This document shows, one piece after another, positions 1 through 30,120 of a stretch of 30,120 nucleotides of DNA. The position numbers were made by a program, and so were the translations under genes. The stretch's first letter is position 1. Each line of letters starts with the position of its first letter. This stretch comes from a virus, in the IMG/VR virus record IMGVR_UViG_3300045988_111621, positions 1 to 30,120 of that record. One strand, given 5' to 3'. The notes beneath the pieces are model-generated. The model did no database searches. It was given only the letters and a program-made list of their open reading frames with translations, and had not been told where the DNA came from.

Positions 1-1
1 A

Positions 2-217
2 GTTGGTCTTTTAATTGCATCTTCAATTGTTGCAGGTTTTAGAGTAAATGAAGTCTATCAGGAAAGACAACATAAAATATTTGAATTAAGATTAGAAAGA
101 GCAGAATTAAAACATAAATTAGATTCAGTAATGTGGGTTAATCCAGCAAGTGAAGAAGTATCTAATTTATATGAAGAATATTGTGATTTAACACTTAAAA
201 TTAATAATATAAAATAA
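2..217 (+). CDS. 3' part of a CDS running off the left edge. Small membrane-anchored, coiled-coil-like protein of unknown function
   Basis: Open frame from the window edge to TAA 215-217. Translation starts VGLLIASSIVAGF (hydrophobic helix), then ERQHKIFELRLERAELKHKL. No start codon lies inside the window. Confidence 0.45.
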   Translation, partial: VGLLIASSIVAGFRVNEVYQERQHKIFELRLERAELKHKLDSVMWVNPASEEVSNLYEEYCDLTLKINNIK

Positions 218-417
218 CAGATATAAGAAGTTTAGTCTTTACAAAGAATCTATTTAAAGAGAAATTTAATATAGATATAGAATGATGTAAAGACGATTAT
301 TCCAGATATGATGGAACATTTAATTGGAATGGAATTGATTATATAATTGAAGTTAAAAGGAGGAGATTTAATTCTAATAAATACCCAACCACTATTATTA
401 ATAGGGATAAATTTGAT

Positions 418-645
418 ATGCTATCAAGAAATAATTCTATATTAGTAATAATATTTGATGATGGAGTATATATATTTAAAGATATAAAACAAGCCTTTAT
501 AAAGGATTCTATGAAATATGGTTGTTCTACAACAGATTTTGGAGGAACTTATGGCTATTCATTAAAAACAGAGTTGTCTTTAAAGAAAGCCATTAAGATA
601 GATGTAAATACAGAATTTAGTAACTATATAGCAAATGACGAATAA
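418..645 (+). CDS. Hypothetical protein, tentatively PD-(D/E)XK nuclease fold. The true start is probably upstream of the first ATG
   Basis: ORF track 418-645. The same frame is open back to 208 (TAA at 205-207) with one in-frame TGA at 283-285. That upstream part encodes ...YDGTFNWNGIDYIIEVKRRRF..., a D...E-x-K-like motif. There is no in-frame ATG between 208 and 418, so the start is unresolved. Confidence 0.45.
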   Translation: MLSRNNSILVIIFDDGVYIFKDIKQAFIKDSMKYGCSTTDFGGTYGYSLKTELSLKKAIKIDVNTEFSNYIANDE

Positions 646-943
646 CGAGATTATTACCAAATACTATGACTTCTGCCAAGAGTTAAAACTTAAATTTGGA
701 ATGGATGATGATTGTTTCCAGATGTGTATACTAGACCTTCTGGAAACATCAAATCCAAAATTAAATCAGCTTGATAGCAAAAATGAATTGAAATTTTGGA
801 TTACAAGATTATTTAAGAATTATTGGTTTAGTAAAACAAGTAGATATTACTATACCTATAAGAAATATTATGAGATTGTTAAAGAACCACTTGAACAACA
901 AAATGACGAATTGGAGGATTGATTAAATGAAACGGAAGATTAA
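635..943 (+). CDS. Small protein resembling sigma-70 region 2 (tentative phage transcription factor)
   Basis: ORF 635-922 continues through TGA 920-922 to TAA 941-943. The segment ELKFWITRLFKNYWFSKTSR resembles region 2 of ECF/sigma-70 proteins by eye only. Confidence 0.4.
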
Positions 944-1172
944 TATTGACGATTTACTTACTGAGTATGAAATAGACTATAGTATGTTTACAAATATGGA
1001 TGATAGACTATTAAGTATATATCCAAAATGACTTGAGCTTAATAAGGCAGATAAGACAGTAATCATATTATATGCTGAATATCACAGTTATAGAGAAGTG
1101 GGAAGAATATTAGGAATTAGTCATACCACAATTCAAAGATTTATTAAACAAATAAGAGAGAGATTATGTTAG
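927..1172 (+). CDS. Helix-turn-helix protein resembling sigma-70 region 4 / LuxR-type DNA-binding domain
   Basis: ATG 927 is preceded by an in-frame TAA at 924-926. One in-frame TGA at 1029-1031, stop TAG 1170-1172. Translation ...LYAEYHSYREVGRILGISHTTIQRFIKQIRERLC is a typical region-4 HTH. It overlaps the previous ORF by 17 nt. Confidence 0.5.
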
Positions 1173-1495
1173 AATTATTTATAATAGCAGTAATAATAGT
1201 CTTTATAATTGATTTATCTGGGGCTTTGGATAGTTTTAAACATAGTATTTGAAAAAGACTATTTAAAGGTATGCCTTATAAAGAAGATTGAAGACTAAAA
1301 CCTTTAGATTGCAGTTTATGTATGACTTGGTGAATTGGATTAATATATATTCTTATTACAAGTCAATTTTCAATTTTAATGGTTGGATATATTGCACTAT
1401 TAGCATTTATGACTCCAATTATTAAAGATATTATGATATTATTAAAAGATGCATCTACTAAGCTGATAGATGTTATATACAAACTTATTGATTAA
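1166..1495 (+). CDS. Small integral membrane protein, unknown function
   Basis: ATG 1166 to TAA 1493-1495 with four in-frame TGA codons. Translation MLELFIIAVIIVFIIDLSG...DCSLCMTWWIGLIYILITSQFSILMVGYIALLAF has 2-3 hydrophobic helices. It is invisible in the standard-code track. Confidence 0.55.
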
Positions 1496-1584
1496 AAATT
1501 ATATTTTATGGAAACAGAAGTTATTTATCACTACAAGAATGGAAAGTTAATTTCTATATTTACTTATACTAAAAAGCGCTAATT

Positions 1585-1920
1585 ATGAAACAATTAACAG
1601 AAGAGCAGTTTAAATATTTAAGAGGATTTGAAGATAGATTTGTAACTGCAACTAAGTCTAATTATTGCAGAAATGTACAAAAGCAGGATGTAATTAAGCT
1701 TAAAGAGATTTATGAATGTTTAATTGAACAAGAATATAGAATGAGCGTAGCTTGTGCTACTTGTATACTTAATCTTATAAAGAGGATTGCCCCAATCTAT
1801 TTTGAATATCAAGAAAAACTAAAGGAAAATGAAAGTAAAGAATCAGGAACTTCCGAAGAAAACAGGGAGGCCAAGAAAGGAAGAGGTAAAAGAGAATCAA
1901 ATAGACGAACAAAAAACTAA
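1585..1920 (+). CDS. Hypothetical protein
   Basis: ORF track, 111 aa, no TGA. The Lys/Arg/Glu-rich C-terminal 30 aa overlap the next ORF by 92 nt. Confidence 0.5.
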   Translation: MKQLTEEQFKYLRGFEDRFVTATKSNYCRNVQKQDVIKLKEIYECLIEQEYRMSVACATCILNLIKRIAPIYFEYQEKLKENESKESGTSEENREAKKGRGKRESNRRTKN

Positions 1921-2281
1921 ATATCTTTATGCAGCAAGATTATTTAATAAAGGGTGGTCCAGAAATAAAGTAAGTGAGGAACTTCAAACTAAATATGGAG
2001 TTGGACAAACTACTGCTGCTAAATATATTAGGGAAGCTTATAAGATTATTGCAGATAAAAATGATAATCTTATAAAGAATTTAAGACATATACAATTAAC
2101 AAGATTGGAAACATTATTGGATATTGCTATTAGTAAAAATGATGTAAGATCTGCTACTGAGGTTATTAAAACAATAAATTCTATGTTTGGATTAAATCAA
2201 CCAGAAATTCAAGTTAATATTCAAAATAATGAATGCCAATTTAAATTTGGAGATCCCATTATAAATGACAAGGATATATAA
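1829..2281 (+). CDS. terS: Terminase small subunit candidate (HTH DNA-binding)
   Basis: It sits immediately upstream of terL and overlaps it by 17 nt. It has an AT-hook-like GRPRK and an HTH-like GWSRNKVSEELQTKYGVGQTTAAKYIREAY. The call rests on position plus motif only. Confidence 0.5.
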   Translation: MKVKNQELPKKTGRPRKEEVKENQIDEQKTKYLYAARLFNKGWSRNKVSEELQTKYGVGQTTAAKYIREAYKIIADKNDNLIKNLRHIQLTRLETLLDIAISKNDVRSATEVIKTINSMFGLNQPEIQVNIQNNECQFKFGDPIINDKDI

Positions 2282-3512
2282 AGGATATAGGCCATTTATG
2301 TACCAATATAAGGTTCATATAGCTATGGCAGATGCTTATAGATCTGGAAGGATATTTACAATTAAAGCTAAACGACAAGTAGGTAAATCTTTCTTAGCTG
2401 AAAATGAATTATTACGATTTGCAATTAACTATCCAAAAACAGTCAATTGTATAGTAGAACCTACTCTTGGACAATCAAGAAAAGTGTTTAAAGAAATAGT
2501 TAATGCTATAGCTGAAGCAGATATTCTTAAACGTAAGAATGAAACTTTGCTTGAATTAGAGTTTAATAATGGCAGTTCTATATTATTTAGATCTGGAGAA
2601 CAAATGGATTCGTTACGAGGATTCTCTGTAAGTGGATTACTTGTATTAGATGAAGCTGCTTACTTAAAAGATGAAGTATTTGAAATTATTAAACCTACTA
2701 CTGATGTGTGGTCTGCTCCAATATTAATTATTAGTACTCCAAGGTTCCGAGAGGGTTTCTTTTATGACTGCTTTACTAAAGGGTTAGATCCGAAATATGA
2801 CAAGTTCTATAAATCATTTGATTGAGCTTTAGAAGATACATCTATGCTTTTAGATAAAGAGAAGTTAGAGATGTATCGACTTACAACCTCAAAAAATAAA
2901 TTTAGAACCGAATATTTAGGGGAATTTGCAGATGATGATGGATGTTTATTTAATAATATAGCTAATTGCATAATTGAGAAAAAACCAGATTATCAGAGTC
3001 TTTATATAGGAATAGACTGGGCTACTGGGAGTGGTAAAGACTATACTTGTGTTACTGCTTTAAATGAATCTGGGCAAATGGTCTTTATAAAGTATTTTAA
3101 CGATAAAACTCCAACAGAGCAAGTTGATTTATTAACAAATATACTAACTGAGTATCAAGGATTTATAAAGATTGTACAAGTTGAACAAAACTCAATTGGT
3201 AGTGTCTTCTATGATATGTTAGTTCAGAAGAATCCGAAAATCAGGATTATACGATTCTTAACTACTAATAAGAGTAAGGCAGATATAGTTAATAAGCTTC
3301 AAGCTGCTTTGGAAAATGAAAAGATAGGATTATTAAAAGATGATAAACTTTTAAATGAGTTAAGACTATATGAAGCTTCATATAATCCAAAAACTGGAAA
3401 TATTAGTTATAATGCTCCATCTGGATTTAATGATGATACAGTAATTTCATTAATGTTAGCCTATGACTCATTAAATACAAACAAAGGACATTATAATATT
3501 AAAATTAAATAG
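2265..3512 (+). CDS. terL: Terminase large subunit
   Basis: Track ORFs 2265-2825 and 2844-3512 share a frame and are separated only by TGA 2823-2825. Walker A KAKRQVGKS, Walker B LLVLDEAAY, coupling motif ISTP. A nuclease-like half follows (YIGIDWATGSGKDY ... FNDDTVISL). Confidence 0.85.
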
Positions 3513-3513: not shown

Positions 3514-4173
3514 ATGAATGTAGCAACTAAATGGGAAGAAGTATCTTTAAAGAAATTCCAAGCTTTAAATACATTTATTATGAGTGATGTAAAAATGACA
3601 GATTTAGATAGGAGTATCGAGATCTACTCATTACTTACAGATAACCCAGATGAAGCAAGGGATGCTTTATTAAATATGACCGTAGATCAATTATCTGCAG
3701 AACTTAGTAAGATTCATTTTATTGTAAATAAATATAAATCCAAAGTTCCAGAAACTGAGTATGATATTGATGGTAATAAATATACAGTTCAATTAAATCT
3801 CAGAAATATGACTGCTGCTCAGTATATTGATTTTCAGAACTTTTATAAAGATTATGAAAAGAATCAGAAGTATATATTCTTATGCTTTTTAATTCCTAAA
3901 GGAAAGAAGTATAATGAGGGTTATGATGTAATGGAATTGGCAGATGAATTATATGATAAAATTCCAATTACTATTGTTACAGACATTATGGTTTTTTTTT
4001 GCAAATTATTAGAGAGCTTAACCATAGCTACCCTAATCTCTTCAATGCGGGAGATGAAGAAATTGATGAAAAAGGAGAAAGATCCAGTAAAGAAACATCA
4101 ATTACGGAAGAGGATAGTTCAAGCGAGACAAACTCTGAATTTAGTCAAAAATGGAACTGGATTTGTTGAATAG
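3514..4173 (+). CDS. Tail assembly chaperone-like protein, frame-0 product
   Basis: ORF track, 219 aa. It contains a T9 run at 3992-4000. See the frameshift product below. Confidence 0.5.
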   Translation: MNVATKWEEVSLKKFQALNTFIMSDVKMTDLDRSIEIYSLLTDNPDEARDALLNMTVDQLSAELSKIHFIVNKYKSKVPETEYDIDGNKYTVQLNLRNMTAAQYIDFQNFYKDYEKNQKYIFLCFLIPKGKKYNEGYDVMELADELYDKIPITIVTDIMVFFCKLLESLTIATLISSMREMKKLMKKEKDPVKKHQLRKRIVQARQTLNLVKNGTGFVE

Positions 4174-4316
4174 ACAGAGTTAGTGAAGTAACAAGGTTAA
4201 ACTGGCATCAAGTATACGATATGCAAATTCAAGAGTTCTTGAATATTATTTGCTACTTACTTGATAAAGGAAAAGAAGAAAAAAGACAAATAGATCTTTG
4301 AAAAGCTAAACACTAA
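3514..4316 (+). CDS. Putative -1 frameshift (G/GT-like) extended product of the chaperone-like gene
   Basis: The -1 frame is open from the T9 run (G GTT TTT TTT TGC, 3991-4002) to TAA 4314-4316, with two TGA=W. It encodes an acidic Ser/Glu linker, then SEFSQKWNWICWIDRVSEVTRLNWHQVYDMQIQEFLNIICYLLDKGKEEKRQIDLWKAKH. Hand translated. Confidence 0.45.
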
Positions 4317-4919: not shown

Positions 4920-7100
4920 ATGGCATTTATACCAAGTAAATTAGGAGTATATAACGCATCAAGGAGTTTTCCTGTTAAATGAAATAATCCTGGATGAGGA
5001 ATTACTGGAGAATATGATTATTGGACTTGGGGAGATGATTATACTGAAGAGGGGCCTTTAGAAGTAACTATACAAGATCCAAGTACTTCTGGATGTACAA
5101 TACAATTTTTATCTCCTACAACAATAACTACTGATTCTTCTACTGTATTTCATTTTTATCCTAGAGGTCTTACTACTGCTTTATTAGGGGAAGATTTACC
5201 AATTAATTTACATAGTAAAGCTCCTGGATATTATCCTGCTAATGGCACCATTAAAGTACCAAATACTGGTGGAGAATATACAGTAGAGTATATATTAAAT
5301 AGATCAGATATTATTAAATGAGATGCAGCAGTTGTTAATGCTACAGCTTTAGTTAATATGGAAGTTCTGGATTGAGATTCTTGCTCTATTAAGTTTAAAG
5401 TTACAGTAAGAGCTAATACTCAATGAAATACTGATTTAACTGCAACTATCCAATTAGGAGCTTATTATGATACTAATAAACTTATTAGTTATAGTTATGG
5501 CTTTAAGATTGAAAAGAGTAATACTCCTGAAGATTTAAAGTTAGTAGTAACTCCTTCTTCTGGAACTTATGGAGCAGCAGCTTTTGTTACTGAAGAATTC
5601 CATTTAAGTACGACTAAAGCAGAAGAAACTATTACATCATTTAATGTTACCTGTCCTCAAGCTAGTAATATTAAAAAGGATATTGTTGATAACTATTTTG
5701 TATTAACTGTTCCAGAGAATAAAACTACTAATAATTTGGAGTTTAGTGCAATGGTTACTGCAACAACTTCTGGGGGTTATAACCTTGAAGCTACAGTTCC
5801 AATTAAACAAGCTGCAACGTATTTAGTGATTCCTAATACTAATTATGAAGTAAGTTGGACTGCATCTACATTAAATATTATGGGAACAGGTTCTAATAAC
5901 TTAGATGATGTTGTATTTAGCATTCCTGTAGGTTGGATTAGTGGACAGAAGTTATCTGTAAATTCTCAAGGTGTAGCAACTATTAGCTTAAATATTGCAG
6001 AAAATTCAGGTTTATCTTCTAGACAAGCAACTATTGGAGTATCTGTTATAAAGAATAGTTCAAGTATTATTAATTTATCTATTAATATTACACAATCTGT
6101 TAAATCTGATATATCTCCTATTTGGAAAGATTATGTTTGGAATGAGATAATCAGTTCAGATTTTATTGAATATCATCTAGATTATGCAGGAGATATGGTT
6201 TATGCTGGCAAGGCTTATAAATATCCAGAAACTGATAGAGTAGAGTTTCTATTAAATAATGTAGCTGAGAATTATCTATCTAATGGTATTATATTTAATA
6301 CTTCTAAAACTATAATATCTCCAGAATATTTGAAACCATTTACTTTGATAACATCTAGTGGAAATGAAAAACCAATTACTTTCTTCAATGACTGGAGTTA
6401 TAAAGATAGAGATCTAACTAAAGGCACTATGTTAAGTGATCCTATTACTGGTTTAGTTGATCCAAGGCAGTATTTAGTATCAAGTTGAATTCTACCAACT
6501 GGAACTGGAGTTATTAATAGATTCTTTTATATAGATGGAGTACAATCTGCTATGGATATTAGTTTAAATTCTGGAATTAATGGATATACATATACAGAAG
6601 ATTTAAGTAATAAATTATGGTCTTGTGGAAGCTATTTAATAGTAGGATTTGTAGAAGGTGGAAATATTAGTGATAGACAGATTAGATATGATATAGATAC
6701 TACAGGTAAAGATTATGTGTTGTATTATACTAATTCAGCAGGTGGATGAGATTCATTACTTGTTGAGGGTAATGTTAAAAAGAATGATGAGATTAAATCT
6801 GAAACATATACTCGTAAGGTATTAAATACATCACAAGAGTTTGCAAGAAATAAGTATTTGAATACTATAACTTCAAGCTGGGTTCTTTATACTGGTTATT
6901 TAAATGATATTCAAGCTTCTAAGATGTTTAATCTAATTGAGAGTACCAAAGTATATTTGCATAATCTTAAAGATAATACTATCACTCCAGTATTGATTAC
7001 AGATACAAATTGTGAATATAAAACTTATACTAATCAAGGTAAAAACAAGTTCTATTATACAATTAATGTAGAAGCTTCTCAAGATACTTATCGTAAATAA
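4920..7100 (+). CDS. Large virion (tail/baseplate-associated) protein, 726 aa, with a BACON-like Ig domain
   Basis: ATG 4920. Track ORFs 5736-6488, 6552-6749 and 6858-7100 share the frame. The gaps were hand translated and contain only TGA (e.g. 4980, 4995), no TAA/TAG. The segment VGWISGQKLSVNSQGVATISLNIAENSGLSSRQATIGVSV looks BACON-like. Confidence 0.7.
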
Positions 7101-7102: not shown

Positions 7103-10100
7103 ATGAGAAAGAATATAAAACTATTTATTGCAAATAAAGAGGTTGACTGTAGTGAGGGAATTAGTCTTCCTATGACATATACTGTTGAGGATTTCCAAAA
7201 CCCCACTATAGTCAAGAACTCGTTTAGTAAAACGATTTCTATACCTGGCACAAAGAATAATAATAAGATTTTTGGAGAGATTTATAAGTTAGATAGATTT
7301 CTCCATATAAAAGAAGGTAATTTCTCTGGAGTATATTTTGATCCTTCAAAACGAGTTGATTTTGGAATCTATAATAATGACTATTTAGTTGAATCTGGAT
7401 ATATGCAATTAAATAGTATATCTATAAAACAAGCTGTTATTACTTATAATATTACTTTATATGGAGGATTAGGAGATTTCTTCTATGGACTTAAATATAA
7501 AGAAGATGGTACTATTAGGACTCTTGCTGATTTACAATACTTTGTAACTGATGAAGATGGGAATACACTTCCTGCTGATACTGAACTTAATTTTTATATT
7601 AACAAAGATTTTGTAAATACTTGTTTTGACTGAAGTAAAACGAATGAAGGAAGTCAAATATATGATTATTTGACATTTATTCCAGCATATAATGGTTTAT
7701 ATGAAGATTTTGATAATGAAACTTGTTTAATAAATACTAATGAAAATAGTATATTTCCTACTAGTAAGACAGATTCAGGAGTTACATATACACCTTATAA
7801 TGGGTATGGATTAGCTAAATTAAATAGAGCATATACAGAATGGGAGATGAGAGATCTTAGAAGTTATATGCAAAGGCCAGCTTTAAAATTGAGTAAGTTA
7901 ATTGAAACTATCTGTAGAAAAGAGAATTCTGGATATGATGTAGTATTTGATCCTTCATTTTTTAATTGAAATAATCCGTATTGAAGTAAATCCTTTGTAG
8001 CTTTACCTTTATTATCTAATCTAGTAAGTGACGAAGAAGATGTAACAGAATCTGGCTTTTTAGTAGAAGATAGTAAATATAATTATCAGGTAGGTATAAA
8101 TAAAGGAGAATCTACATCAAGTCCTTTAAAATTATCCATTGCATCACCTGATATTGTTTACGATTCTGGAATAATTGATTTAAGTGAGGCTGGATTTAGA
8201 AAAAGCCTTTCTACAACTTTTTATTTTAAGTTAAAGTTTAATCGAACTGCAGGAAATGTTGGGGATAGATATTTTTTTGGATTTAGAAGGTATTTTAGCT
8301 CCTCTGCTCCTCCTTTTTATTCAGCATATAGAGGATACGCTGATGTTTGGCTAACAATTACTAATGAAGTAGATGATACTATTTATACTTCTGAAATACA
8401 TAGATTTACAAATTCAGGAACCTACTCACATCCTATAGCTAATGGGGTTAATCATTTTGGGTATTTTCAAAATAATGTATTTTATGATACTTCTTCATTA
8501 ACTAATGATTTTGTTATTAATATTACAAATTTTAAAATTCCAATTAATAAAATTAAAATTAAACTTAATGTTGTATGATCTACTGGAAATAGTGTTCGCC
8601 CTACTGGATTATTAAGTGAAGTAATAGAAAGAGGAGAGGATTACCAAGCTATTCCAAAAGGAGATCTTATAGTAGATCTTACTTCTCCCATTGAAATTAC
8701 TACTTCTACAGAGGTACTTCAAAGTAATGCATTATTAACTAAAAAATTATTATTAAAAACAGAACAATCTCCTGCTGATTACTTATTGAGTTATGCAAAA
8801 CTATTTGGGTTATATTTTACAAAAGATATTGATAGTAAAACAATTAGAATATATACTAGAAATAATTTCTTTAAGAATATAATCTCTGATTGGAGCAAGA
8901 GAATAGATTATTCTAAAGATTTCAATGTAAATCCAATATTATTTGATAAGAAGTGATATAGAATGAGTTCTGAAGGTCCAGAAACTTATTTTTATAAAAA
9001 ATACAATAAGGAATATTCTATATTATATGGTCAACAAAGATTAAATACTGGTTATAATTTTAATTCTGAAACAACTGAACTGTATAGTGATAATATATAT
9101 GAAAATATAGTTTCTGCAAGATGGAGAAATAAATATTTTAGAAATTTTTACAATTCTTCTTCCCTTGTAGTTCCTGCATTTATGAATGATAATATTACCT
9201 ATACATTATTTAATAATAGCACTACTGAACTTAAGACTATAGATCAAGAGTTATACGGAGCTAATTTTATAGATCCCTCTAAAACCACAGAATGATATAA
9301 AATCGCAGGTAATGATATATTTGCCAAAAATGTATTTTTCTCAATTGATGGTAATGAGGAATCTTTAGAGGATATCTCTCAATCCCTAGTATTCTTTAAC
9401 GGTAATGTTCCTTTAACTGATGTAAAAGGAAATGAAGTAACATATTGAATTACAGATGATCTTACAGAAATGAACATATTAAATGATCAGGAAATGTGTT
9501 ATATATCTACTAAAAGTGAGAAAGATATTAGGGGGAATAAAATTGCTATAAAGAGAACTGTATTACCTCAATTTACAAGGTATACCGTTTCGTCCTCTAA
9601 TGTTACTGCTTCTTGAGATTTTGGATTACCACAAGAGATTTATATTGATGATATAACTTATAATATCGGAAGTACTATTTATAGTAGATTCTGAAGTGAA
9701 TTTTATAATGATCAATTTGATGTAAATACTAAAAAAGTTACCTGCTTTGTAAGATTAGATGATTTAGATGTTAAGTATGATTTACTTAGACAGTTCTATT
9801 ATTTTGAAGATTCTTACTGGATACTTAATAAGATTGATGCTTATGATATTAATTCAGATTCTACAGTTAGATGTGAATTTATTAAAGTTCAAGATATTAA
9901 TAGTTATTTAGCTGGAGTTCAAAATCTAGGTGAATACATATCATTTGATGATTCAGATCCAGTTGTAGATTATAAAGCTGGGACTAAAAAGATTACAGTT
10001 ACTTCTAATATTCCTTGAGAATTAGGATGGTATAGTCCAAATGAAATTGTAAGTATTACACCTGAATCTGGGCAACCTGGAGAAACAGAATTGACAGTTA

Positions 10101-13585: not shown

Positions 13586-13591
13586 TTAATT

Positions 13592-14197: not shown

Positions 14198-14218
14198 TTT
14201 ATAAAATTTTAAATAATT

Positions 14219-15689: not shown

Positions 15690-15700
15690 TAACAGAAAGA

Positions 15701-15737
15701 GGGGCGAGTATTAATTTACTTGCCCCTTATTTTGTTT
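15701..15737 (+). terminator. Rho-independent terminator
   Basis: GGGGCGAGTA-TTAATT-TACTTGCCCC (10-bp stem with one G-U pair), followed by TTATTTTGTTT. Confidence 0.75.
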
Positions 15738-15780
15738 ATATACCACATAATGAATAATTTATATTTTATAGAAAAATAAT

Positions 15781-17117: not shown

Positions 17118-17122
17118 ACAAT

Positions 17123-20459: not shown

Positions 20460-20461
20460 TT

Positions 20462-21360: not shown

Positions 21361-21874
21361 AGTATTAACAAATTATCCTAACTATAGTGTATCTTCTACA
21401 GGAGATGTATATAGTAACCCATTGACTTTTAAAGATTCTATTGGAAGAACCAGAAAACAAATACATAAAAAGCTAAAACAGCATATAGATAAATATGGCT
21501 ATAATTATGTAATTCTAGTATCTGGCTTAGATAAACCTAAAGCTATTAAAGTTCACAGACTAGTAGCAGAAGCATTTATTCCAAATCCTGACAATCTACC
21601 ATATGTTAACCATATAAATGAAAATAAGACAGATAATAGGGTAGAAAATTTAGAATGATGTGATGCAAAGTATAATAATACATATGGAACTAGAATAAAT
21701 AGATGTATTGATAAAATTAGTAAACCTGTAGGGCTATTTATTAATGATTTACTAGTTAAAACATATAAAAATGCAATTGAAACATCAATAGATGGGTATA
21801 CTCATAGTAGAGTTATAGATTGTCTTAAAGGAAGAACAGACACTTATAAAGGGGTAAAATTTAAATATATCTAA
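21353..21874 (+). CDS. HNH homing endonuclease (NUMOD4-like N-terminus, HNH_3-like core)
   Basis: Start taken at ATG 21353 ([21 protein letters not shown]). Core [13 protein letters not shown]...[20 protein letters not shown](21656)-CD, where the family motif is NLEW. The C-terminus YKGVKFKYI is typical of these endonucleases. Confidence 0.75.
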
Positions 21875-21875: not shown

Positions 21876-22865
21876 ATGACAAATACAATTTCTGATAAAT
21901 TAACGTATCTTGAAGGTACTAAGAGTGCCATTAAAGATGCTATTGTAGCTAAAGGTGTTGCTGTATCAGATTCCGATACCTTTAGAAGCTATGCAGATAA
22001 GATAGGACAGATTTCTGGAGGTGGTGGAGGAAAGATTAATTTAAATGATTATGGATTAACATTTTCAAATTCTAAAATGGATAAAGATCATTATGATAAC
22101 GTTGAATATGAAATTCCACAAGATTGTAGTTATTGATTTCATATGGCTTCATTTCAAGATCCTATTGATATATCTGATCATATTAATCCAGATATATTAT
22201 ATGCTGCGGAAAGAACATTTCAATATGCTAGGAATATACATATTAATGAGATAAAACTGATGGCCGAACTTCCATATACATTTTCTAGTTTTGCAGGCAG
22301 TATTGATACTCTAGAATTTATTAATCCTCAATCCGTTAGTTGAGGATATTGTACGCGCACATTTTATTTATCCTCATCTTTTCCAAAAAATATAACAATA
22401 ACAAATAAGTATGAAACTAGTGTATGTGCATTAGAATATTTTTTTAATCAAGTAACTACTGATTCTGCTGTTCCTATTAGTGTCCCTGAAATTGAAGTTA
22501 TAAATGGGCAAGTAACTTTTATTCAGTATTTTAGCTCAGATTCATCTAGTATCAAATCTATAGGTAAAATAAAATTAACAAATTGTTCTTTATACCGAGA
22601 TCTTAATAAAACAGCACTTTGTGGTATGGGTAGTACTGTTGTAACTTATTTTGGAGGTGTTGAAGGAGCTGATAAAAGTATGAATTTAGCAAATTTTAGA
22701 GCACTAAATAGTCAATCAGTAACTGATATTATTACAAATGTTAGTGATTTAACTGGAAAGGATACCAAAACTTTAACTTTTTATACTAACATTTATAATG
22801 CACTTACTGAAGAACAGAAATCATTAGCTACATCTAAAAACTGAACTTTAGCAAGTTCAAACTAA
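21876..22865 (+). CDS. Putative receptor-binding protein, BspA/DUF285-like, paralogue 3
   Basis: Three same-frame track ORFs are joined by TGA at 22134 and 22341. A third TGA at 22842 lies in the KN-W motif. N-terminal LTYLEGTKSAIKDAIVAKGVAVSDSDTFRSYADKI and a poly-Gly hinge. The C-terminus is LTEEQKSLATSKNWTLASSN. Confidence 0.6.
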
Positions 22866-23017: not shown

Positions 23018-23410
23018 ATGAATTATACTTTATTAATGCAAAATACAACTACTAAAGAAGTTTATACATTTGATCTTGAAAATCAGAATTATTCTGAGAA
23101 TATCTACTATAAGTTTGATATTACACTTCAAGAAGGAATGAGAGACGGTGAATATCAATATATTTTATTTACTAATCCAAATAAATTTCAAGTTATAGTT
23201 GATGTAAACAATCCATTTAGATCAGAGTTATATGGCAATCCAGTTATTCTGGTTACATATAATAATACTCTTACTAATGGTACTCAGATATTAGTTGCTG
23301 GTAAACCAATACCTATATTGGGAACAGGATTAATAAGAATTGGAGATTATGAGAATAATAATTATCAATACGACAAACCTAATACATACGTAAGTTATGA
23401 GCGAAAATAA
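23018..23410 (+). CDS. Hypothetical protein
   Basis: ORF track, 130 aa, no TGA. It overlaps the portal start by 14 nt. Confidence 0.55.
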   Translation: MNYTLLMQNTTTKEVYTFDLENQNYSENIYYKFDITLQEGMRDGEYQYILFTNPNKFQVIVDVNNPFRSELYGNPVILVTYNNTLTNGTQILVAGKPIPILGTGLIRIGDYENNNYQYDKPNTYVSYERK

Positions 23411-24479
23411 AACAAAAGTTCAGTTAAGTGCTATTGATCCATTTATTGCAAGTAATATCGTATTACCTACAGAAACTAAAGTGAGGGGAAAAGATTATGT
23501 AATGTGGGGAGAAGATAACAAATATCCATTATATCTATGGGATTTATATTTAAATGTTGCCACTCTCCAATCCATTATTAATGGTTCTGCTGACTTTATT
23601 GTTGGTAACGATGTTAAATGTAATGCTCCAGGATTTGAAGTAGTTGTAAACAAGAAAGGTGAAACAATAGTTGATATAATGAGAAAAATCACTATTGATA
23701 AGATGATATTTGGAGGTTATGCTATCCAAGTAATTAGAGATATGCTCGGAAGAGTTGCAGAGATATATCATATTGATTTTATGAATGTAAGGTCAAGCGA
23801 AAAGAATGATATATTATATTATGCAACTGATTGGACAGCTTGGTCTGTAAAAGCTATAAAATATCCAAAATTTGGAGCTGGGGATGAAAATCCAGCTAGT
23901 ATATTTTATAATAAAGGTTATATAACAAGAGGAGTATATCCTATTCCTGTTTATGGAGCTGCTATTTTATCTTGTGAAACTGAGAAAAATATTAATGAAT
24001 TCCATTTAAATAACATCAATAATGGATTTATGGGTAATCTTATTATTAACTTTAATAATGGGGAACCTACAGATGAAATTAGAGAGGAGATTGAGAGGAA
24101 TATTAATGAGAAGTTCTCTGGTTATCAGAATGCTGGCAGAATATTGATTTCATATAATGCAGATGAGGCAAATAAGACTACTATTGAAAGATTAGATTCT
24201 GATGATTTTGATGAGAAATATCAATCATTATCTGAGAGAACCAGAGATCAAATATTCTGTGCCTTCAGAGCTAATCCTAACTTATTTGGAATTAACTCAG
24301 ATTCAACTGGTTTTAATGAGCAAGAATTTGAATCTTCATTCAAGCTTTATAATAGAACTATGATTAGACCTATTCAGAAAGAGATTTGTGATTCATTTGA
24401 TAAGATCTTTGGAATGCAGAATTCAATCACAATTTCACCATTTAGCCTTAATGAAGCTGATACTAAACAAGTTGAATAA
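23397..24479 (+). CDS. Portal protein
   Basis: 360 aa. The overall pattern resembles small PBSX/HK97-type portals by eye (WGEDNKYP, YAIQVIRD, ...NPNLFGI...). No TGA; all four Trp are TGG. Confidence 0.6.
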   Translation: MSENKTKVQLSAIDPFIASNIVLPTETKVRGKDYVMWGEDNKYPLYLWDLYLNVATLQSIINGSADFIVGNDVKCNAPGFEVVVNKKGETIVDIMRKITIDKMIFGGYAIQVIRDMLGRVAEIYHIDFMNVRSSEKNDILYYATDWTAWSVKAIKYPKFGAGDENPASIFYNKGYITRGVYPIPVYGAAILSCETEKNINEFHLNNINNGFMGNLIINFNNGEPTDEIREEIERNINEKFSGYQNAGRILISYNADEANKTTIERLDSDDFDEKYQSLSERTRDQIFCAFRANPNLFGINSDSTGFNEQEFESSFKLYNRTMIRPIQKEICDSFDKIFGMQNSITISPFSLNEADTKQVE

Positions 24480-25162
24480 TGGAAAATAATTATAGAAATG
24501 TACTATTAATATCTGAAGATTATATAAAATCAGAATCCAATTTAGACAATAATGTTTCTGGTAAATATCTTCAGTCAGCAATTAAACTTGCACAAGATAT
24601 TGAGCTTCAGTCATTAATTGGAACTAAGCTCTTAGAAAAGATTCAGAAATTAGTAATTGATTGAAAAGATCCAAATAAACCAGTTCATCCAATAGAACCT
24701 CCTATTTATGATCCTACTTCAATAGATGACCCAGAAAATCATAGATATAAAGAATTGCTAGATTACTATATTCAGCCTTATTTACTTTATCAAGTATTAA
24801 GTGAGATTACTATACCCATCTCATTTAAGCTGAGTAATTTTGGGGTTATGAGGACTGATGATGAGAAAGATTTAACTTCTGATATTAGCCAAGTTAATCT
24901 TATTAAGAAATATTATAGAGATAAAGCAGATTTCTTTAAAACGAGATTACAAAATTGGGTAATTACATATTATAATGATTTTCCTGAATTGTATTCTTAT
25001 AAACCTCTTAAAGATATGTATCCAAATATGTATTCAAGTTCATCTTGCACTATTTGGTTAGGTGGAGCTAGAGGTAAAGGTTGGAGATATAATTCTTGTG
25101 AAGGTCCTCTGCAAAGAGCTTATGATTTCCCTTCAAGTGATAACAATAAAAAGAGTAAGTAA
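24479..25162 (+). CDS. Hypothetical virion protein (position suggests head completion/connector)
   Basis: Track ORFs 24479-24664 and 24755-25162 share a frame and are joined by TGA 24662-24664. TAATG-type coupling to the portal stop. Confidence 0.55.
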
Positions 25163-26245: not shown

Positions 26246-26407
26246 ATGAAATATTGGATGAAATATTTAATAGCAATAGTAATTATAATCTTAGTATTTT
26301 TAATGGTAAAAGTAATTCCATTTTGTATTACATTAGCACTCATAGCACTTGGTGCAGGATGTCATTTATTTTACCGTTATACTATGCTTAAAGATATTAT
26401 TAAATAA
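26246..26407 (+). CDS. Holin candidate (53 aa, two transmembrane helices)
   Basis: MKYWMKYLIAIVIIILVFLMVKVIPFCITLALIALGAGCHLFYRYTMLKDIIK. It lies immediately upstream of the endolysin and is translationally coupled to it (TAATG). Confidence 0.55.
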   Translation: MKYWMKYLIAIVIIILVFLMVKVIPFCITLALIALGAGCHLFYRYTMLKDIIK

Positions 26408-26859
26408 TGAAATATTTTACTATTAGTGAATTAACAAGATCTGATACAGCTTCTATTAAGAAGATAGATAATACTCCAAATAAAGAGATTACTGAACACC
26501 TTATAGAGTTAGTCGAGAAACTTTTAGACCCATTAAGAAGTGCTTGGGCAGAGTATTGTGATGTTAATCGGTTGGGGAATCCAGCAATAAGTGTGAATTC
26601 AGGTTATAGATGTAATGAGCTTAATAAAGCTGTAGGAGGATCTTTGACATCTGCTCACCTAACAGGATATGCAGCAGATATAATTCCAAGTAACGGCCAA
26701 ATGAAAGAATTTCAGGTTTGGATTACTGAAGCTATTGAGAAGTATGATTTTGATCAACTTATTTATGAGAAACCTAGAAATGGAATAGCTAGTTGAATTC
26801 ATTTAGGACTGAAGAATAAAGAGGGTTTGCAGAGAAGACAGAAATTTACTATTATATAA
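26407..26859 (+). CDS. Endolysin, zinc peptidase M15 family (VanY / L-Ala-D-Glu peptidase-like)
   Basis: SGYRCNELNKAVGGSLTSAHLTGYAAD (H-x6-D zinc ligands), then ...GIAS-TGA(26794-26796)-IHLG. The family has W-[VI]-H carrying the third zinc ligand. Stop TAA at 26857-26859. Confidence 0.75.
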
Positions 26860-27428
26860 TGTTTTACTATTGTTATAAAATAATTTTAACTGCAGGTACA
26901 TTAAGAGGCAAGTATTATATTGGGAAAAGGATTTATAGAGGTAAAGACATAAATAAAGATCCATATAAAGGATCAGGAAGGATTATTACTAATTATTACA
27001 AAAGATTCCCTAATGCATACCAAAAGATTATTTTGGCAACTTGCACTAATGCAGATGAATTATCTAAATTAGAATACAAACTAATTGGAGATAAATGGGA
27101 CACTGATCCTATGTGTTTAAATTTGAAACCTGGAGGAGAAGGAGGCAATTACGGAGTCAAATTTAATTCTGAATGAAAGAAGAAACTGTCTAATTCTAAT
27201 AAGGGAAAGAAACATAATTGCCCAGAATCTTGAAGAGTTAAAGTAGATGCTCATAACAAACAAAGATGTCGTAAAGTAGCTCAGTATGATTTAGATGGTA
27301 ATTTTATTCAAGAGTATGAAAGTTGCACAGAAGCAGCCAAATCTGTAGGAACTGATAGAGGAGCTATTAGTAGAGTATGTGGTGGATTAGCAAATACAGC
27401 TAAAGGATTCAAGTGAAGATATGTTTAA
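26859..27428 (+). CDS. GIY-YIG homing endonuclease
   Basis: YCYKII...GKYYIGKR...YKGSG...NLKPGGEG. The ORF continues through TGA 27174, 27231 and 27414 into NUMOD3/IENR1-like KLSNSNKGKKH and AAKSVGTDRGAISRVCGG. TAA at 27426-27428. Confidence 0.7.
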
Positions 27429-27430
27429 TA

Positions 27431-27470
27431 AAAAAGAAATAGGAGGGTATAAACCCTCCTATTTTCATTT
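27431..27470. terminator. Bidirectional terminator between convergent gene blocks
   Basis: AGGAGGG-TATAAA-CCCTCCT at 27441-27460, flanked by an A-rich tract upstream and ATTTTCATTT downstream. Confidence 0.65.
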
Positions 27471-27612
27471 ATTCCATTATTTCAAATAATTTATCATCTT
27501 CTTTAGGTATTAAATCTCCTGTTTGTAAGTCTACTAAAAACTTACTATTTTCTGGTATTACATATACATAATACACTCCATTTATACATACTTTATAGGT
27601 TTGGTATTTCAT
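27469..27612 (-). CDS. Hypothetical small protein (47 aa)
   Basis: Hand translated: MKYQTYKVCINGVYYVYVIPENSKFLVDLQTGDLIPKEDDKLFEIME. Its start lies 1 nt from the upstream stop. Confidence 0.4.
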   Translation of the reverse strand: MKYQTYKVCINGVYYVYVIPENSKFLVDLQTGDLIPKEDDKLFEIME

Positions 27613-27613
27613 A

Positions 27614-27754
27614 TTAATCAGTATATGTTGCATTAGTAATTTCTGGTTTTGGCATTTCTTCTACTTCTTCCCAAACTAAACCTCTATTCTGGTTTTCTAG
27701 TTGAACTATTCTGTATTCTAGTTCTTCAAGCTTTTTAAATAAATGATCATCCAT
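27614..27754 (-). CDS. Hypothetical small protein (46 aa, coiled-coil-like)
   Basis: Hand translated: MDDHLFKKLEELEYRIVQLENQNRGLVWEEVEEMPKPEITNATYTD. Confidence 0.4.
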   Translation of the reverse strand: MDDHLFKKLEELEYRIVQLENQNRGLVWEEVEEMPKPEITNATYTD

Positions 27755-27756
27755 AA

Positions 27757-27918
27757 TTAATCAAATTTAGAAATAAACATATAATCTTTATTTTTTAATA
27801 CTTTGTCTATAATATCACCAAATCTTTTAGTAGCCTCTTTACATTCGAGCATTCATCTATCTAACTCTTTAATATACTCTTCTGTTTGTTTAATTGTTTC
27901 TTTAATATCATTTTCCAT
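27757..27918 (-). CDS. Hypothetical small protein (53 aa)
   Basis: Hand translated: MENDIKETIKQTEEYIKELDRWMLECKEATKRFGDIIDKVLKNKDYMFISKFD, with one TGA=W at 27853-27855. Motif copy F lies about 20 nt upstream. Confidence 0.4.
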
Positions 27919-27935
27919 AATTAAAATATTTTAAT

Positions 27936-27990
27936 AAATGTCTATTTTTTACTCAACTAATGTATATAGATAAAAATAAAAATAGACATA
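27936..27990. repeat. Left arm of an imperfect ~50-bp inverted repeat bracketing the helicase gene
   Basis: AAATGTCTATTTTTTACTCAACTAATGTATATAGATAAAAATAAAAATAGACATA. The reverse complement of 29731-29786 reads AAGGTGTCAAATTTTTACTCACTTGATGTGTATAGATAAAATAAAAATAGACAAT. The core TATAGATAAAA(A)TAAAAATAGACA is identical apart from a 1-nt indel. Confidence 0.65.
27938..27956 (-). promoter_or_regulatory. Conserved motif, copy F (minus strand: TTGAGTAAAAAATAGACAT)
   Basis: This is the reverse complement of 27938-27956. It lies about 20 nt upstream of minus-strand ATG 27918. Confidence 0.5.
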
Positions 27991-29709
27991 CTAATTTTTA
28001 AAGACATACTTTTTACCTATAATAGTATATCCATAAGATCTGTTTCCATTCACTGATTTTTTAGTTACCTTAACTTCATAATATTTTGTAATATCAGTAG
28101 CTTTAGCATTAGTTTTATTAACTAAATCATAAGCTTTTTGTAGTATCTTTTTAATATCAGTATTAGAATACCACATACCTAAAGTTATATCTTTATTAAG
28201 TTTATTTGCTACTTTATTATCTACAGATTTATCTGAAGTTTTAATAAGTTCATCTTTTATTTTAGTAATACAGTATTTTAGAGTGGCCATTTTATTGAAT
28301 CCAAGTTTAGTAATAGCATCCATTAACCAAGGGTATTTAATAAGAGCATCATCTAATTTTGGGGTGTTTACCTTATATAAGGTTTCATATTCCTCTCTTA
28401 CTTCTTTAATTATATCTTTAAATGCTTTTGTTTTAGTATTTAGATCTATTTTTATAGAATTATCATATTGTTCTACCACTTTATTAAATCCTTTATTAAT
28501 ATATTCCTTAGAAAGATTAGCTCTAGCAGAATACAGTCCCCTAGATACTTTAAAATTAAATAAATCAATTTTAGCCATATTAGGGTCAAATTCAAATACA
28601 TCATCCCAATTTAATTTAATGTATGCATCAGAAGTAAATTCTCTAAGTTTCTTTTTAGCTATCTCTGGAAGTTTATTGTATGCTTCTACAGCAATTTTAG
28701 TTTCTTCAATATTCTGGATATTAAGCTTTTTAAATTCTTCATAAGATATATCAGCATATCTTGTTGTAGAATAAATGTGAGTTATCCAATTAATATATTT
28801 ACTATTTCTAATTCTACCAGCAATCTGCTGTATAGAAGTTGATATATCAAGTAATGTATTAGCTTTACTTGGATCAGATATAATTATTATCCTTCCATTT
28901 TCATCATAAATATCTGAACCTTCAAATACAGTTGAAGTTAATAAGTTTATTTTCTTAGGTTCATCTAAGACTGTTGAATTAGGAATTGACAGTTTAGTTT
29001 TATTGTTTTTGGAATATATAACTCTGGTATTATTAGATGTTAATTTGGCTTTCTTAATAAGGTTCTTTATAAAGTCTACTGAATTAACGAATATGTAGGC
29101 GTTACCTTCAACCTGTCCGTTTAAAAATCCATTTATAAGTTTAATAGTAGAAGCTTCTACATTATCACATTTAACAGTTTGCACTTTTACATCTATAACA
29201 TCATCCCATTCCTGCTTTACTAATTCTAAATCTTTTAATTCATCTAATACAAACTCTTCCTCTAAAGGTGTTGCGGTCATAAATGTAAAATTACCAAATA
29301 ATTTATAATATTTAAGCACTGATTGAATAGCAGAGCTTCTAAAGCTATACTGATTAAAGAGAATATGATATTCATCAATTAAAATGCTAAACTCTTTAGG
29401 ATTAATTGCAGAAATAACTTTATAAAGAGAATCATAGGTAACAATGATTTTAGGGCATTTAACACTATCTACATAATCTTTAATCTCTTTAATAGTAACA
29501 CCAGCATAAACTCCAAATATCTTCTCAGTACGTCTTTCATTTGGATATTGTTGAAGTTTATTTTCAACTAAGCTAGTAAATGGAACACAAATAACATAAG
29601 GCTTATTGCATTCAATTGCCATTGAAGTTCCTCCACATCCAACTTTTCCTTTATCAAATAAACAGTTAGTTGGCAACTCATTAATAATTTCATTTAAATA
29701 TGTTTTCAT
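27991..29709 (-). CDS. Superfamily 2 (DEAD/DExH-like) helicase
   Basis: 572 aa. Motif I GKVGCGGTS, motif II LIDEYH, motif III MTATP, motif VI QQIAGRIRN. No TGA; all five Trp are TGG. Confidence 0.7.
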   Translation of the reverse strand: MKTYLNEIINELPTNCLFDKGKVGCGGTSMAIECNKPYVICVPFTSLVENKLQQYPNERRTEKIFGVYAGVTIKEIKDYVDSVKCPKIIVTYDSLYKVISAINPKEFSILIDEYHILFNQYSFRSSAIQSVLKYYKLFGNFTFMTATPLEEEFVLDELKDLELVKQEWDDVIDVKVQTVKCDNVEASTIKLINGFLNGQVEGNAYIFVNSVDFIKNLIKKAKLTSNNTRVIYSKNNKTKLSIPNSTVLDEPKKINLLTSTVFEGSDIYDENGRIIIISDPSKANTLLDISTSIQQIAGRIRNSKYINWITHIYSTTRYADISYEEFKKLNIQNIEETKIAVEAYNKLPEIAKKKLREFTSDAYIKLNWDDVFEFDPNMAKIDLFNFKVSRGLYSARANLSKEYINKGFNKVVEQYDNSIKIDLNTKTKAFKDIIKEVREEYETLYKVNTPKLDDALIKYPWLMDAITKLGFNKMATLKYCITKIKDELIKTSDKSVDNKVANKLNKDITLGMWYSNTDIKKILQKAYDLVNKTNAKATDITKYYEVKVTKKSVNGNRSYGYTIIGKKYVFKN

Positions 29710-29730
29710 AGTTGTAATAATTTTGGTTAT

Positions 29731-29786
29731 TAATTGTCTATTTTTATTTTATCTATACACATCAAGTGAGTAAAAATTTGACACCT
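29731..29786. repeat. Right arm of the inverted repeat bracketing the helicase gene
   Basis: See the left arm. The inner half (minus strand TAAAAATAGACAAT) lies about 25 nt upstream of helicase ATG 29709. The outer half is motif copy E. Confidence 0.65.
29766..29784 (+). promoter_or_regulatory. Conserved motif, copy E (GTGAGTAAAAATTTGACAC), followed by a hairpin
   Basis: Hairpin GGCAGG-ATTTTCA-CCTGCC at 29801-29819. Confidence 0.45.
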
Positions 29787-29856
29787 TAATGTTAAAAAGT
29801 GGCAGGATTTTCACCTGCCTAGAAGTAGTAGAATTACTTGTTTTATTTTGATACTA

Positions 29857-29888
29857 CAAAGATAATACATAAAAATTAAATTTCCAAA
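29857..29888 (-). promoter_or_regulatory. Bacteroides-type promoter (-33 TTTG / -7 TAnnTTTG), leftward, copy 1
   Basis: Minus strand: TTTG (29885-29888), 20-nt spacer, TATCTTTG (29857-29864). It points towards the helicase gene. Confidence 0.55.
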
Positions 29889-29945
29889 TAATTTAGATAT
29901 TATTTTTAATAAAAATTCATTTTTATGATTCTTATTTTGATAGTA

Positions 29946-29977
29946 CAAATATACAATATTATTTTTAAATTTCCAAA
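29946..29977 (-). promoter_or_regulatory. Bacteroides-type promoter, leftward, copy 2 (tandem duplicate)
   Basis: Minus strand: TTTG (29974-29977), 20-nt spacer, TATATTTG (29946-29953). The flanks (TTTGATA[CG]TACAAA ... AAATTTCCAAATAATTT) repeat those of copy 1. Confidence 0.55.
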
Positions 29978-30025
29978 TAATTTTAAGAAAAAAAATAAAA
30001 AAAATATGAAAAAGTTGTCAAAAAA

Positions 30026-30057
30026 TTTGGAAATTGAATAAAAATGTATTATCTTTG
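30026..30057 (+). promoter_or_regulatory. Bacteroides-type promoter, rightward
   Basis: TTTG (30026-30029), 20-nt spacer, TATCTTTG (30050-30057). It is an inverted copy of the leftward cassette. An ATG at 30102 follows. Confidence 0.55.
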
Positions 30058-30101
30058 TAGTACAATAATAAACAAATATTAACTTATTAAATAATAAAAT
30101 T

Positions 30102-30120
30102 ATGAAAAAAATAAATAAAA
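30102..30120 (+). CDS. Possible 5' end of a CDS running off the right edge (MKKINK...)
   Basis: ATG 30102 lies about 45 nt downstream of the rightward promoter. Only 6 codons are visible. Confidence 0.25.

Follow-up and report, generated by a model that had tools for sequence, protein, structure and literature searches.

Sequence Comparisons Point to UGA as a Tryptophan Codon in a Compact Human Gut Phage Genome with No Recognizable Suppressor tRNA

An Essentially Complete Genome of an Uncultured Gut Phage

The DNA analyzed here comprises positions 1 to 30,120 of IMG/VR virus record IMGVR_UViG_3300045988_111621 (hereafter the window, i.e., the whole stretch of 30,120 bp; GC content 29.5%) and derives from a tailed, as yet uncultured phage that is common in the human gut. 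Annotation with translation table 11 makes this widespread phage look like debris, its large terminase (terL), tail, and lysis genes being split into pieces. When TGA is taken as sense, the coding fraction of the window is ~92.6%, and the comparisons presented below indicate that UGA is read as tryptophan. The lineage is abundant, with 100 indexed blocks of the collection containing its helicase and 22 IMG/VR loci among its relatives.

Mapped on relatives L008, L009, and L013, the two ends of the window lie 4 nt apart. These ends interrupt a 79-aa gene, from which the bases AAAA are missing. The window thus holds all but 4 nt of a circularly permuted phage genome of ~30,124 bp and is essentially complete. 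Nearly all genes lie on the plus strand, from ~217 to 27428. A short divergent set on the minus strand (27469–29709) is presumed to be the early operon. The plus-strand genes that carry in-frame TGA codons are as follows.

635–943, 927–1172, and 1166–1495, plus strand: three small genes, the second helix-turn-helix (HTH)/sigma-r4-like (annotation taken from precomputed Pfam hits on relatives) and the third encoding a membrane protein with the motif CSLCMTWW; TGAs 920, 1029, 1250, 1289, and 1331.
2265–3512, plus strand: terL, 415 aa, with Pfam domains Terminase_6N (residues 37–231) and Terminase_6C (248–401); one TGA, 2823 (residue 187); TAG stop.
4920–7100, plus strand: structural protein, tail or baseplate-like, 726 aa; seven TGAs, 4980, 4995, 5319, 5373, 5424, 6486, and 6747.
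7103–10462, plus strand: structural protein, 1119 aa, with a weak viral BACON-like stretch; ten TGAs, 7631, 7967, 7982, 8576, 8954, 9293, 9446, 9614, 9692, and 10016.
10464–12797, plus strand: tape-measure-like protein, 777 aa, assigned by composition (coiled-coil, Gly/Ala-rich hydrophobic stretches) and syntenic position, with no strong Pfam hit; TGAs 11097, 11376, and 11829.
19338–20459, plus strand: tail-fiber paralog; TGAs 19551 and 20436.
21353–21874, plus strand: HNH homing endonuclease (HNH_3 and NUMOD4 hits); TGA 21656.
21876–22865, plus strand: tail-fiber paralog; TGAs 22134, 22341, and 22842.
24479–25162, plus strand: DUF6712-type gene; TGA 24662.
From 25589, plus strand: lysis-region membrane-anchored protein, 217 aa; TGAs 25628, 25853, 26024, and 26189.
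26407–26859, plus strand: M15 peptidase; TGA 26794.
26859–27428, plus strand: NUMOD1 endonuclease-like gene; TGAs 27174, 27231, and 27414.

Reading TGA as Sense Restores Intact Genes

An initial annotation, made from the sequence of the window alone, had described single genes broken into same-frame pieces by TGA only. Every coordinate checked holds, for terL (TGA 2823), for the tape-measure-like gene (TGAs 11097, 11376, and 11829), and for the genes at 4920–7100 and 7103–10462. With curated starts (TGAs 4414, 4420, and 25574 fall upstream of likely true starts), our 32 accepted gene models contain 41 in-frame TGA codons, distributed over 14 genes, together with 59 TGG codons and no internal TAA or TAG. 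TAA ends 27 of the models and TAG the other five, with no TGA stop. The proposal that TAA dominates and that TAG still terminates (at 1170, 4171, and 21358) thus extends to the TAG stops of terL (3510–3512) and of the minus-strand helicase gene. The phage terminates with UAA and UAG only; since both are read by release factor 1 (RF1), it never needs release factor 2 (RF2).

The comparison of coding density suggested by the initial annotation separates the codes clearly. With table 11, 65% of the window falls within open reading frames (ORFs) of at least 150 aa; this share rises to 96% with TGA as sense, compared with 66% in a control with TAG as sense. We estimate that a 1119-codon frame free of TAA and TAG would arise by chance with a probability of ~e^-76, at ~0.066 stops per codon. 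Within terL, the Pfam Terminase_6N domain aligns straight across the TGA at residue 187.

TGA codons are evenly spaced along the genes, and the distribution of bases at the +4 position is like that of TGG codons; TGA use is therefore reassignment, not context-dependent readthrough. We rejected a dual-code "block" organization of the genome, as no gene ends in TGA, those of the TGA-free blocks included. In public annotations, most related contigs already have TGA translated as sense, and fragmented calls persist in some public assemblies (L010 and L013).

TGA Exchanges with TGG and Occupies Aromatic Columns

We aligned the window to ~77 related contigs from public gut metagenomes and IMG/VR and recorded the codons found opposite each tryptophan position. 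At window TGA sites, the relatives have TGA 719 times, TGG 190 times, and another codon 21 times (TAT, TCT, CTT, and AGA); at window TGG sites, they have TGG 1242 times and TGA 124 times. TGG replaces TGA in all relatives at sites 4980 and 4995 (9/9), in about half of them at 20436 (11/21) and 24662 (24/47), and less often at 920 (9/40), 26794 (3/44), and 22842 (1/35). The two codons interchange among relatives at 1029 and 1331 and are mixed at 5373, 5424, and 6747. At portal site 23505, 20 of 46 relatives have TGA.

Distant relatives (35%–50% TerL identity), most of which use the standard code, provide an independent set of columns. Opposite TGA, they have W 64 times, F 64 times, and Y 23 times, a profile that is the same as that of TGG columns. 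Glycine, the residue which the initial annotation had suggested looking for in these columns, occurs only three times. W is present in every aligned distant relative at 1331 (11/11), 9692 (10/10), and 26794 (2/2). Across 120 database homologs of TerL, the column of the TGA holds W 53 times, F 65 times, and L twice, many of the W residues being code-4 translations of close relatives.

Matches to named families agree with these counts. The HNH endonuclease reads NRVENLE-TGA(21656) where the family motif was given as NLEW, and the solved structure of I-HmuI (1u3e) indeed has W at this place (...NLRW...). The M15 peptidase reads S-TGA(26794)-IHL, against a family pattern W-[VI]-H; relatives L023 and L026 have SWIHI. 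The three tail-fiber C termini put forward as paralogous end in ...KLTDEQKAIATNKNW(TGG 16888)ILA, ...KLTDEQKSLIASKN-TGA(20436)-SINRIA, and ...LTEEQKSLATSKN-TGA(22842)-TLASSN. Both the sequences and BLASTP (E = 5e-6 and 2e-5) support the paralogy; the three share KLT[DE]EQK..KNW, and one of them has TGG at the position of the W. Because domains continue across TGA, TGA and TGG exchange, distant relatives have W, F, and Y in the same columns, and the named families match, we conclude that UGA, on the sequence evidence, is a sense codon equivalent to UGG and encodes tryptophan (genetic code 4).

We give next to no credence to the other readings of these codons, namely that TGA is glycine (code 25), selenocysteine, or cysteine, that it truly terminates genes now decaying into pseudogenes, or that it stems from sequencing errors. 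Code 25 phages do exist in human microbiomes, and those of Absconditabacteria and Gracilibacteria resemble the present phage in having in-frame TGA throughout genes and no phage suppressor tRNA. In those phages, however, TGA is glycine, whereas here TGG is exchanged for TGA and the columns are aromatic; no GGN, TGC, or TGT codon lies opposite TGA in the relatives, and glycine accounts for 3 of ~200 aligned TGA columns. A true-stop reading can point to TGAs 920, 20436, 22842, and 27414, which lie within 8 codons of the annotated stop, but near-terminal TGAs swap with TGG (at 20436 and 920, as counted above), and the paralog with TGG runs three residues on. The same TGAs are kept in dozens of independent assemblies, with homology continuing beyond them; sequencing error and gene decay are therefore excluded. 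Codon exchange and the distant-relative columns exclude pseudogenes and errors as well as code 25, selenocysteine, and cysteine.

TGA Is Depleted from the Helicase and Capsid Genes

The initial annotation had TGA recoded throughout the phage. This stands for the 14 genes listed above (44% of modeled genes) and fails for the block 12992–19336 and for the helicase gene 27991–29709, both TGA-free. The block has 12 TGG and no TGA codons (Fisher test against the other plus-strand genes, p = 9.5e-4). Over the genome, TGA makes up 41% of tryptophan codons, compared with 71% A-ending codons (71:29) for Lys, Glu, and Gln. The other mapped genes are listed here with clade-wide counts, in which one W-site cell is one site in one relative.

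12992–13585, plus strand: S78_2/XkdF-type protease (Pfam/PHROGs); TGA-free.
13592–14197, plus strand: scaffold-like gene; TGA-free; TGA in 0/20 W-site cells.
14219–15124, plus strand: major-capsid-like gene; TGA-free; GC 0.396, GC at third codon positions (GC3) 0.308; TGA in 1/104 W-site cells.
15165–15689, plus strand: gene; TGA-free; TGA in 2/80 W-site cells.
15781–16902, plus strand: tail-fiber paralog; TGA-free.
16887–17117, plus strand: gene; TGA-free.
17123–19336, plus strand: tail fiber, 737 aa, Phage_tail_C (Pfam); TGA-free.
20435–20698 and 20701–21360, plus strand: small genes.
23397–24479, plus strand: portal (Pfam Phage_portal, PHROG portal families); TGA-free in the window; some of its W sites are TGA in relatives.
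27991–29709, minus strand: SF2 helicase-like protein, 572 aa; five TGG, no TGA, TAG stop; TGA in 2/~250 W-site cells.
27757–27918 (53 aa, TGA 27853–27855), 27614–27754, and 27469–27633, minus strand: three small ORFs.

At the other extreme, TGA fills 70/71 W-site cells of the fiber paralog at 21876–22865, 23/23 of the HNH endonuclease, 42/47 of the HTH gene at 927–1172, 84/107 of the NUMOD gene at 26859–27428, and 210/374 of the 217-aa lysis-region protein. Clade-wide, the TGA fraction at W sites of tail-fiber, HNH, and NUMOD genes is 0.5–1.0. The major-capsid-like gene has the highest GC3 of all genes (against a genome mean of 0.157), and its A-ending fraction for Lys, Glu, and Gln is 0.31 versus 0.71, i.e., G-ending codons are favored. 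Its codon use could be host adaptation of the most expressed gene or a sign of foreign origin; the high GC3 fits adaptation to a host richer in G+C.

Because TGA is depleted in the helicase and capsid genes and forms only 41% of tryptophan codons, we infer that TGA is selected against in genes for which early or very high expression is important, decoding being conditional or less efficient than that of TGG. The clade-wide avoidance gives a measurable signature of decoding cost or timing. There is no clean early/late split, as the capsid block is TGA-free too and a small ORF of the presumed early operon has a conserved TGA.

The Genome Has No Recognizable Decoding Machinery

ARAGORN found no tRNA or tmRNA in the window, whether linear, circularized, or at a 90% threshold, and Rfam gave no tRNA hit in it at E ≤ 1. 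At an 80% ARAGORN threshold with introns allowed, 50 calls were made; the 40 that were listed are noise-like, and none of these has a UCA anticodon. The window proteome is free of GGQ, HIGH/KMSKS, PP-loop, and cytidine-deaminase motifs and of release-factor or aminoacyl-tRNA synthetase Pfam domains. The lack of visible recoding machinery noted in the initial annotation thus extends to the whole genome minus 4 nt, which has no recognizable tRNA, release-factor, or Trp-tRNA synthetase gene. The decoder would therefore have to be external or an unrecognized phage protein. In a genome this complete, a missing suppressor tRNA cannot be put down to incomplete assembly, and the question of tRNA-less decoding becomes concrete, with the search narrowed to the host and to a few small genes free of TGA.

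A further 42 loci were scanned, of which 32 came from relatives or from syntenic contigs at a greater distance and 10 were pieces of large phages. They have no tRNA, and no UCA anticodon, apart from an 88-nt tRNA-Ser(GCU) in L005 (6154–6241) and L007 (1806–1893). This tRNA, which is absent from L004 and L006, is no opal suppressor. L004–L007 are the four loci read from a sister TGA-recoded lineage (57% TerL identity) that has an HTH_36 gene in place of the helicase.

The helicase-like protein, the one large protein of the presumed early set that is free of TGA, was modeled with confidence (pLDDT 84.5), and a fold search against the PDB returned generic two-RecA SF2 helicases; the C-terminal part is helical. 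Neither the model nor the search gives a sign of a code-switch function for this 572-aa protein, and replication or origin handling would be its likeliest role.

Relatives and Translation Signals Point to Bacteroidota

A Shine-Dalgarno (SD)-like motif precedes 1 of 30 window ORFs, which is below background; the figure is 0%–8% in relatives, 3%–5% in Bacteroides contigs, and 43%–46% in two Firmicutes controls. Two Bacteroides sp. contigs (189 kb and 587 kb) hold syntenic relatives (34%–50% TerL identity), as do bins labeled Paludibacteraceae, Rikenellaceae, and "Bacteroidia." Homologs of the helicase occur in a Hymenobacter chromosome and also beside Bacteroidota-type integrases and BACON proteins. 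Because the genes are SD-less and relatives sit in Bacteroidota contigs, a standard-code host, most likely of the Bacteroidota, is likely but unproven. To our knowledge, Bacteroidota use the standard code, and we know of no code-4 lineage in the phylum. The Bacteroidota promoter motif is not enriched in the window (TAnnTTTG, 37 matches versus 45.6 expected; full -33/-7 pattern, 0), and a scan of GTDB genomes with a TerL profile gave no relative above 50% identity and no direct host.

The code varies within the TerL family. The clade at or above 57% identity is TGA-recoded, members at 45%–50% use the standard code, and some at 34%–37% are TAG-recoded. The family thus has standard-code, TAG-recoded, and TGA-recoded members, and its code, as judged from these genomes, is labile. 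Such lability within phage families was described by Borges et al.

Two GTDB contigs at 34%–37% TerL identity, L026 (JAEEVN010000017.1) and L027 (JAGHSX010000037.1), have a GC of 0.29–0.32 and appear TAG-recoded; their ORF coverage of 0.33 and 0.67, respectively, increases to 0.81 and 1.11 with TAG as sense. In the 132-kb contig L158 (ENA scaffold LEMO22-1_SAMN17215489_METAG-scaffold_71), a prophage starting at ~5900 carries a helicase homolog (48% identity) and adjoins standard-code host genes (glutamine synthetase and TerC) and a Phage_int_SAM_5 integrase. The terminase-like ORF of this prophage contains 13 in-frame TAGs; it is therefore a TAG-recoded prophage in a standard-code host.

How UGA May Be Decoded

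The phage belongs to a code-4 clade. We consider it probable that its host is a standard-code bacterium, most likely of the Bacteroidota, that UGA decoding is conditional or inefficient, and that the decoder is not recognizably phage-encoded. In outline, the phage would infect a standard-code Bacteroidota host in which UGA is decoded conditionally or less efficiently than UGG, and the early helicase gene and the genes of the virion proteins made in the largest amounts would be held free of UGA by selection. The decoder would come from outside the phage or act through an unrecognized phage protein. Our best guess, a hypothetical one, is that Trp-tRNA may read UGA once RF2 competition has been removed or once host tRNA-Trp has been altered by a small phage protein. 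Taken as a specific claim, reprogramming of a standard-code host by such a protein-based route (RF2 neutralized or tRNA-Trp altered), or use of the decoder of another recoded element, appears unlikely. In such a host the phage would need UGA to be decoded efficiently as tryptophan, with up to 10 UGAs in a single gene.

Several observations weigh against this explanation. The RF2 or tRNA-Trp mechanism is hypothetical. Neither a CRISPR match nor an integrated copy of the clade was obtained to link it to a host, and some close relatives are in bins labeled Firmicutes, although the labels of metagenome-assembled genome bins are unreliable for contigs of ~35 kb or less. The avoidance of TGA in the capsid gene could be the ordinary G-ending bias of highly expressed genes instead of a decoding cost. 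The presumed early operon includes, downstream of the helicase gene, the 53-aa ORF at 27757–27918, whose TGA (27853–27855) is present in 56 of 56 relatives and is never TGG. It is followed by ATG in 39 relatives and by ATA or ATT in the other 17, and variation on both sides of it is synonymous; this TGA could be a conserved readthrough or sensor arrangement, or a plain invariant tryptophan codon. In two aligned relatives, L113 among them, the helicase gene itself uses TGA for one of its W sites. Finally, a complete genome without a decoder is exactly what is expected for a phage of a natively code-4 host.

The last point leads to the alternative that the phage simply matches its host, a gut bacterium, AT-rich and so far uncultured, that would have tRNA-Trp(UCA) and lack RF2, so that there is no code switch. 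This we regard as possible but doubtful. It would explain most simply why tRNA, release-factor, and aminoacyl-tRNA synthetase genes are missing from a complete genome. It also agrees with the presence of TGA in every plus-strand module outside the capsid-to-tail-fiber block and in the small minus-strand ORF just described, and with the helicase TGA of the two relatives. Homing endonuclease genes saturated with TGA imply a long stay in a TGA-sense gene pool, and most cultured table-4 phages infect Mycoplasma or Spiroplasma (Cook et al.). Set against this are the low share of TGA among tryptophan codons (41% versus 71% A-ending codons elsewhere), its restriction to 44% of genes, the strong clade-wide depletion in helicase and capsid genes, and the G-ending codons favored by the capsid-like gene. 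Translation signals and relatives point to Bacteroidota, and sister lineages (35%–50% TerL identity) are standard-code or TAG-recoded, so that the code looks labile rather than host-inherited. A host that proved to be natively code 4 would point to an unrecognized code-4 lineage in the human gut.

One IMG/VR contig bears on the origin of the decoder. In contig 3300045988_175865 (148,631 bp; L113, L149, L189, and L199), the sequence passes from a large TGA-recoded phage into a copy of the 30-kb genome that is colinear with the window; the contig is not host DNA. The ~19 kb upstream of the join are 99.8% identical to large-phage contigs L191 and L202. The family of this large phage comprises contigs of 85–168 kb that are TGA-recoded, SD-less, and similar in GC, with collagen-like tail fibers. 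The join lies inside a tail-fiber gene, at L199 ~18975–18980, corresponding to window 19192, with ~8 nt common to both at the junction. The contig may be a true recombinant, but a chimera made in assembly or scaffolding is at least as likely.

A decoder borrowed from a co-resident element, i.e., a co-infecting large TGA-recoded phage or a prophage with a UGA suppressor tRNA, is quite improbable in our estimate. Large TGA-recoded, SD-less gut phages of similar GC do occur in the same datasets, and if the join in the 148,631-bp contig is real, both phages meet in one cell. However, that junction is short and seen in a single contig, no tRNA was present in the ~21-kb large-phage pieces that were read, and for a lineage as common as the 30-kb one, obligate dependence on a helper would be costly. 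We retain a standard-code host, with conditional or inefficient UGA decoding, as the probable explanation.

Comparison with Known Recoded Phages

Stop-codon recoding in gut phages is established (Ivanova et al., 2014; Yutin et al., 2021; Borges et al., 2021/2022), and the remark in the initial annotation that it is known in some gut phages is borne out by published phages of similar size. Gut phage clades of ~34 kb mix codes 11, 15, and 4, and most code-4 genomes are without a detectable suppressor tRNA; Sup-TCA tRNA is found in only 15%–35% of code-4 genomes. TGA-to-Trp is the rarer form, with 46 viral operational taxonomic units (vOTUs) in UHGV and, in Dutch cohorts, 21 contigs versus 5706 that are TAG-recoded. 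The kind of recoding is thus already known; what is added here is a compact, complete, tRNA-less example with gene-by-gene TGA avoidance.

The closest likeness is to the Garnet and Amethyst clades of Borges et al. (~34 ± 5 kb, codes 11/15/4 mixed; a Garnet prophage is in Prevotella). Shared features are the human gut origin, a size of ~30 kb, mixed codes among relatives, both standard-code and TAG-recoded, a likely standard-code Bacteroidota host, recoded structural and lysis genes, absence of the recoded stop from a presumed early or replication-type gene, and no detectable suppressor tRNA. In contrast, the published small-clade representatives are TAG-recoded and this lineage is TGA-recoded; its capsid module also avoids the recoded codon, which departs from a simple "late genes are recoded" pattern, and no integrase was found among the window genes.

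Jade, Agate, and the opal crAss-like phages (Borges et al.; Yutin et al., 2021) likewise read TGA as tryptophan in late and lysis genes and have predicted standard-code gut hosts, but they measure 100–200 kb and often carry Sup-TCA tRNAs, Jade also having RF1 and TrpRS, whereas the present genome is 30 kb with none of these. In the INPHARED phage collection, nothing closely resembles the window TerL; the best matches, at 24%–29% identity, are to Thermus, Meiothermus, and haloarchaeal phages. Members of the Crassvirales have genomes of ~100 kb, crAss-type TerL, portal, and capsid proteins, and a giant RNA polymerase, and the phage is not one of them. This agrees with the earlier view that it does not look crAss-like: the genome is ~30 kb, it has a tape-measure-like gene, and none of the 30 TerL matches listed is crAss-like.

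Phages of the code-4 hosts Mycoplasma and Spiroplasma share TGA as tryptophan, AT richness, and the absence of a suppressor tRNA, which they do not need. Here, however, TGA is the minority tryptophan codon, some genes avoid it, and the signals point to Bacteroidota; moreover, a megablast of 25 kb of the window against INPHARED phages gave no nucleotide match.

Further Features of the Window

PHROGs and Pfam searches of the unannotated window proteins returned almost nothing. For the capsid module, described as HK97-type in the initial annotation, the only matches obtained were to the S78_2/XkdF-type protease and to the PHROG "virion structural protein." Weak BACON_2 and BspA-LRR hits among the window proteins are in line with a Bacteroidota host.

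At 217–645, relatives encode a 144-aa protein with a PD-(D/E)xK-like D...EVK motif. The window copy is without the ATGAAA start, owing to a 6-nt deletion relative to L008, and either has a non-ATG start or is shortened to 75 aa (418–645). An ORF at 3999–4316, with TGAs 4167 and 4299, overlaps the end of gene 3514–4173 in another frame. It is uncalled in the public annotation of any relative and is probably not a gene.

HNH, GIY-YIG, and NUMOD homing endonuclease genes are plentiful in the lineage (21353–21874 and 26859–27428 in the window; also L002, L008, L009, L011, and L012). They vary in presence and position among otherwise colinear genomes and are nearly saturated with TGA codons.

Between the convergent plus- and minus-strand gene sets lies one more feature, read from the sequence.

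27430–27465, between the two gene sets: G+C-rich hairpin flanked by A and T runs, aaaataggagggtttataccctcctatttctttttt; probably, by prediction, a bidirectional intrinsic terminator.

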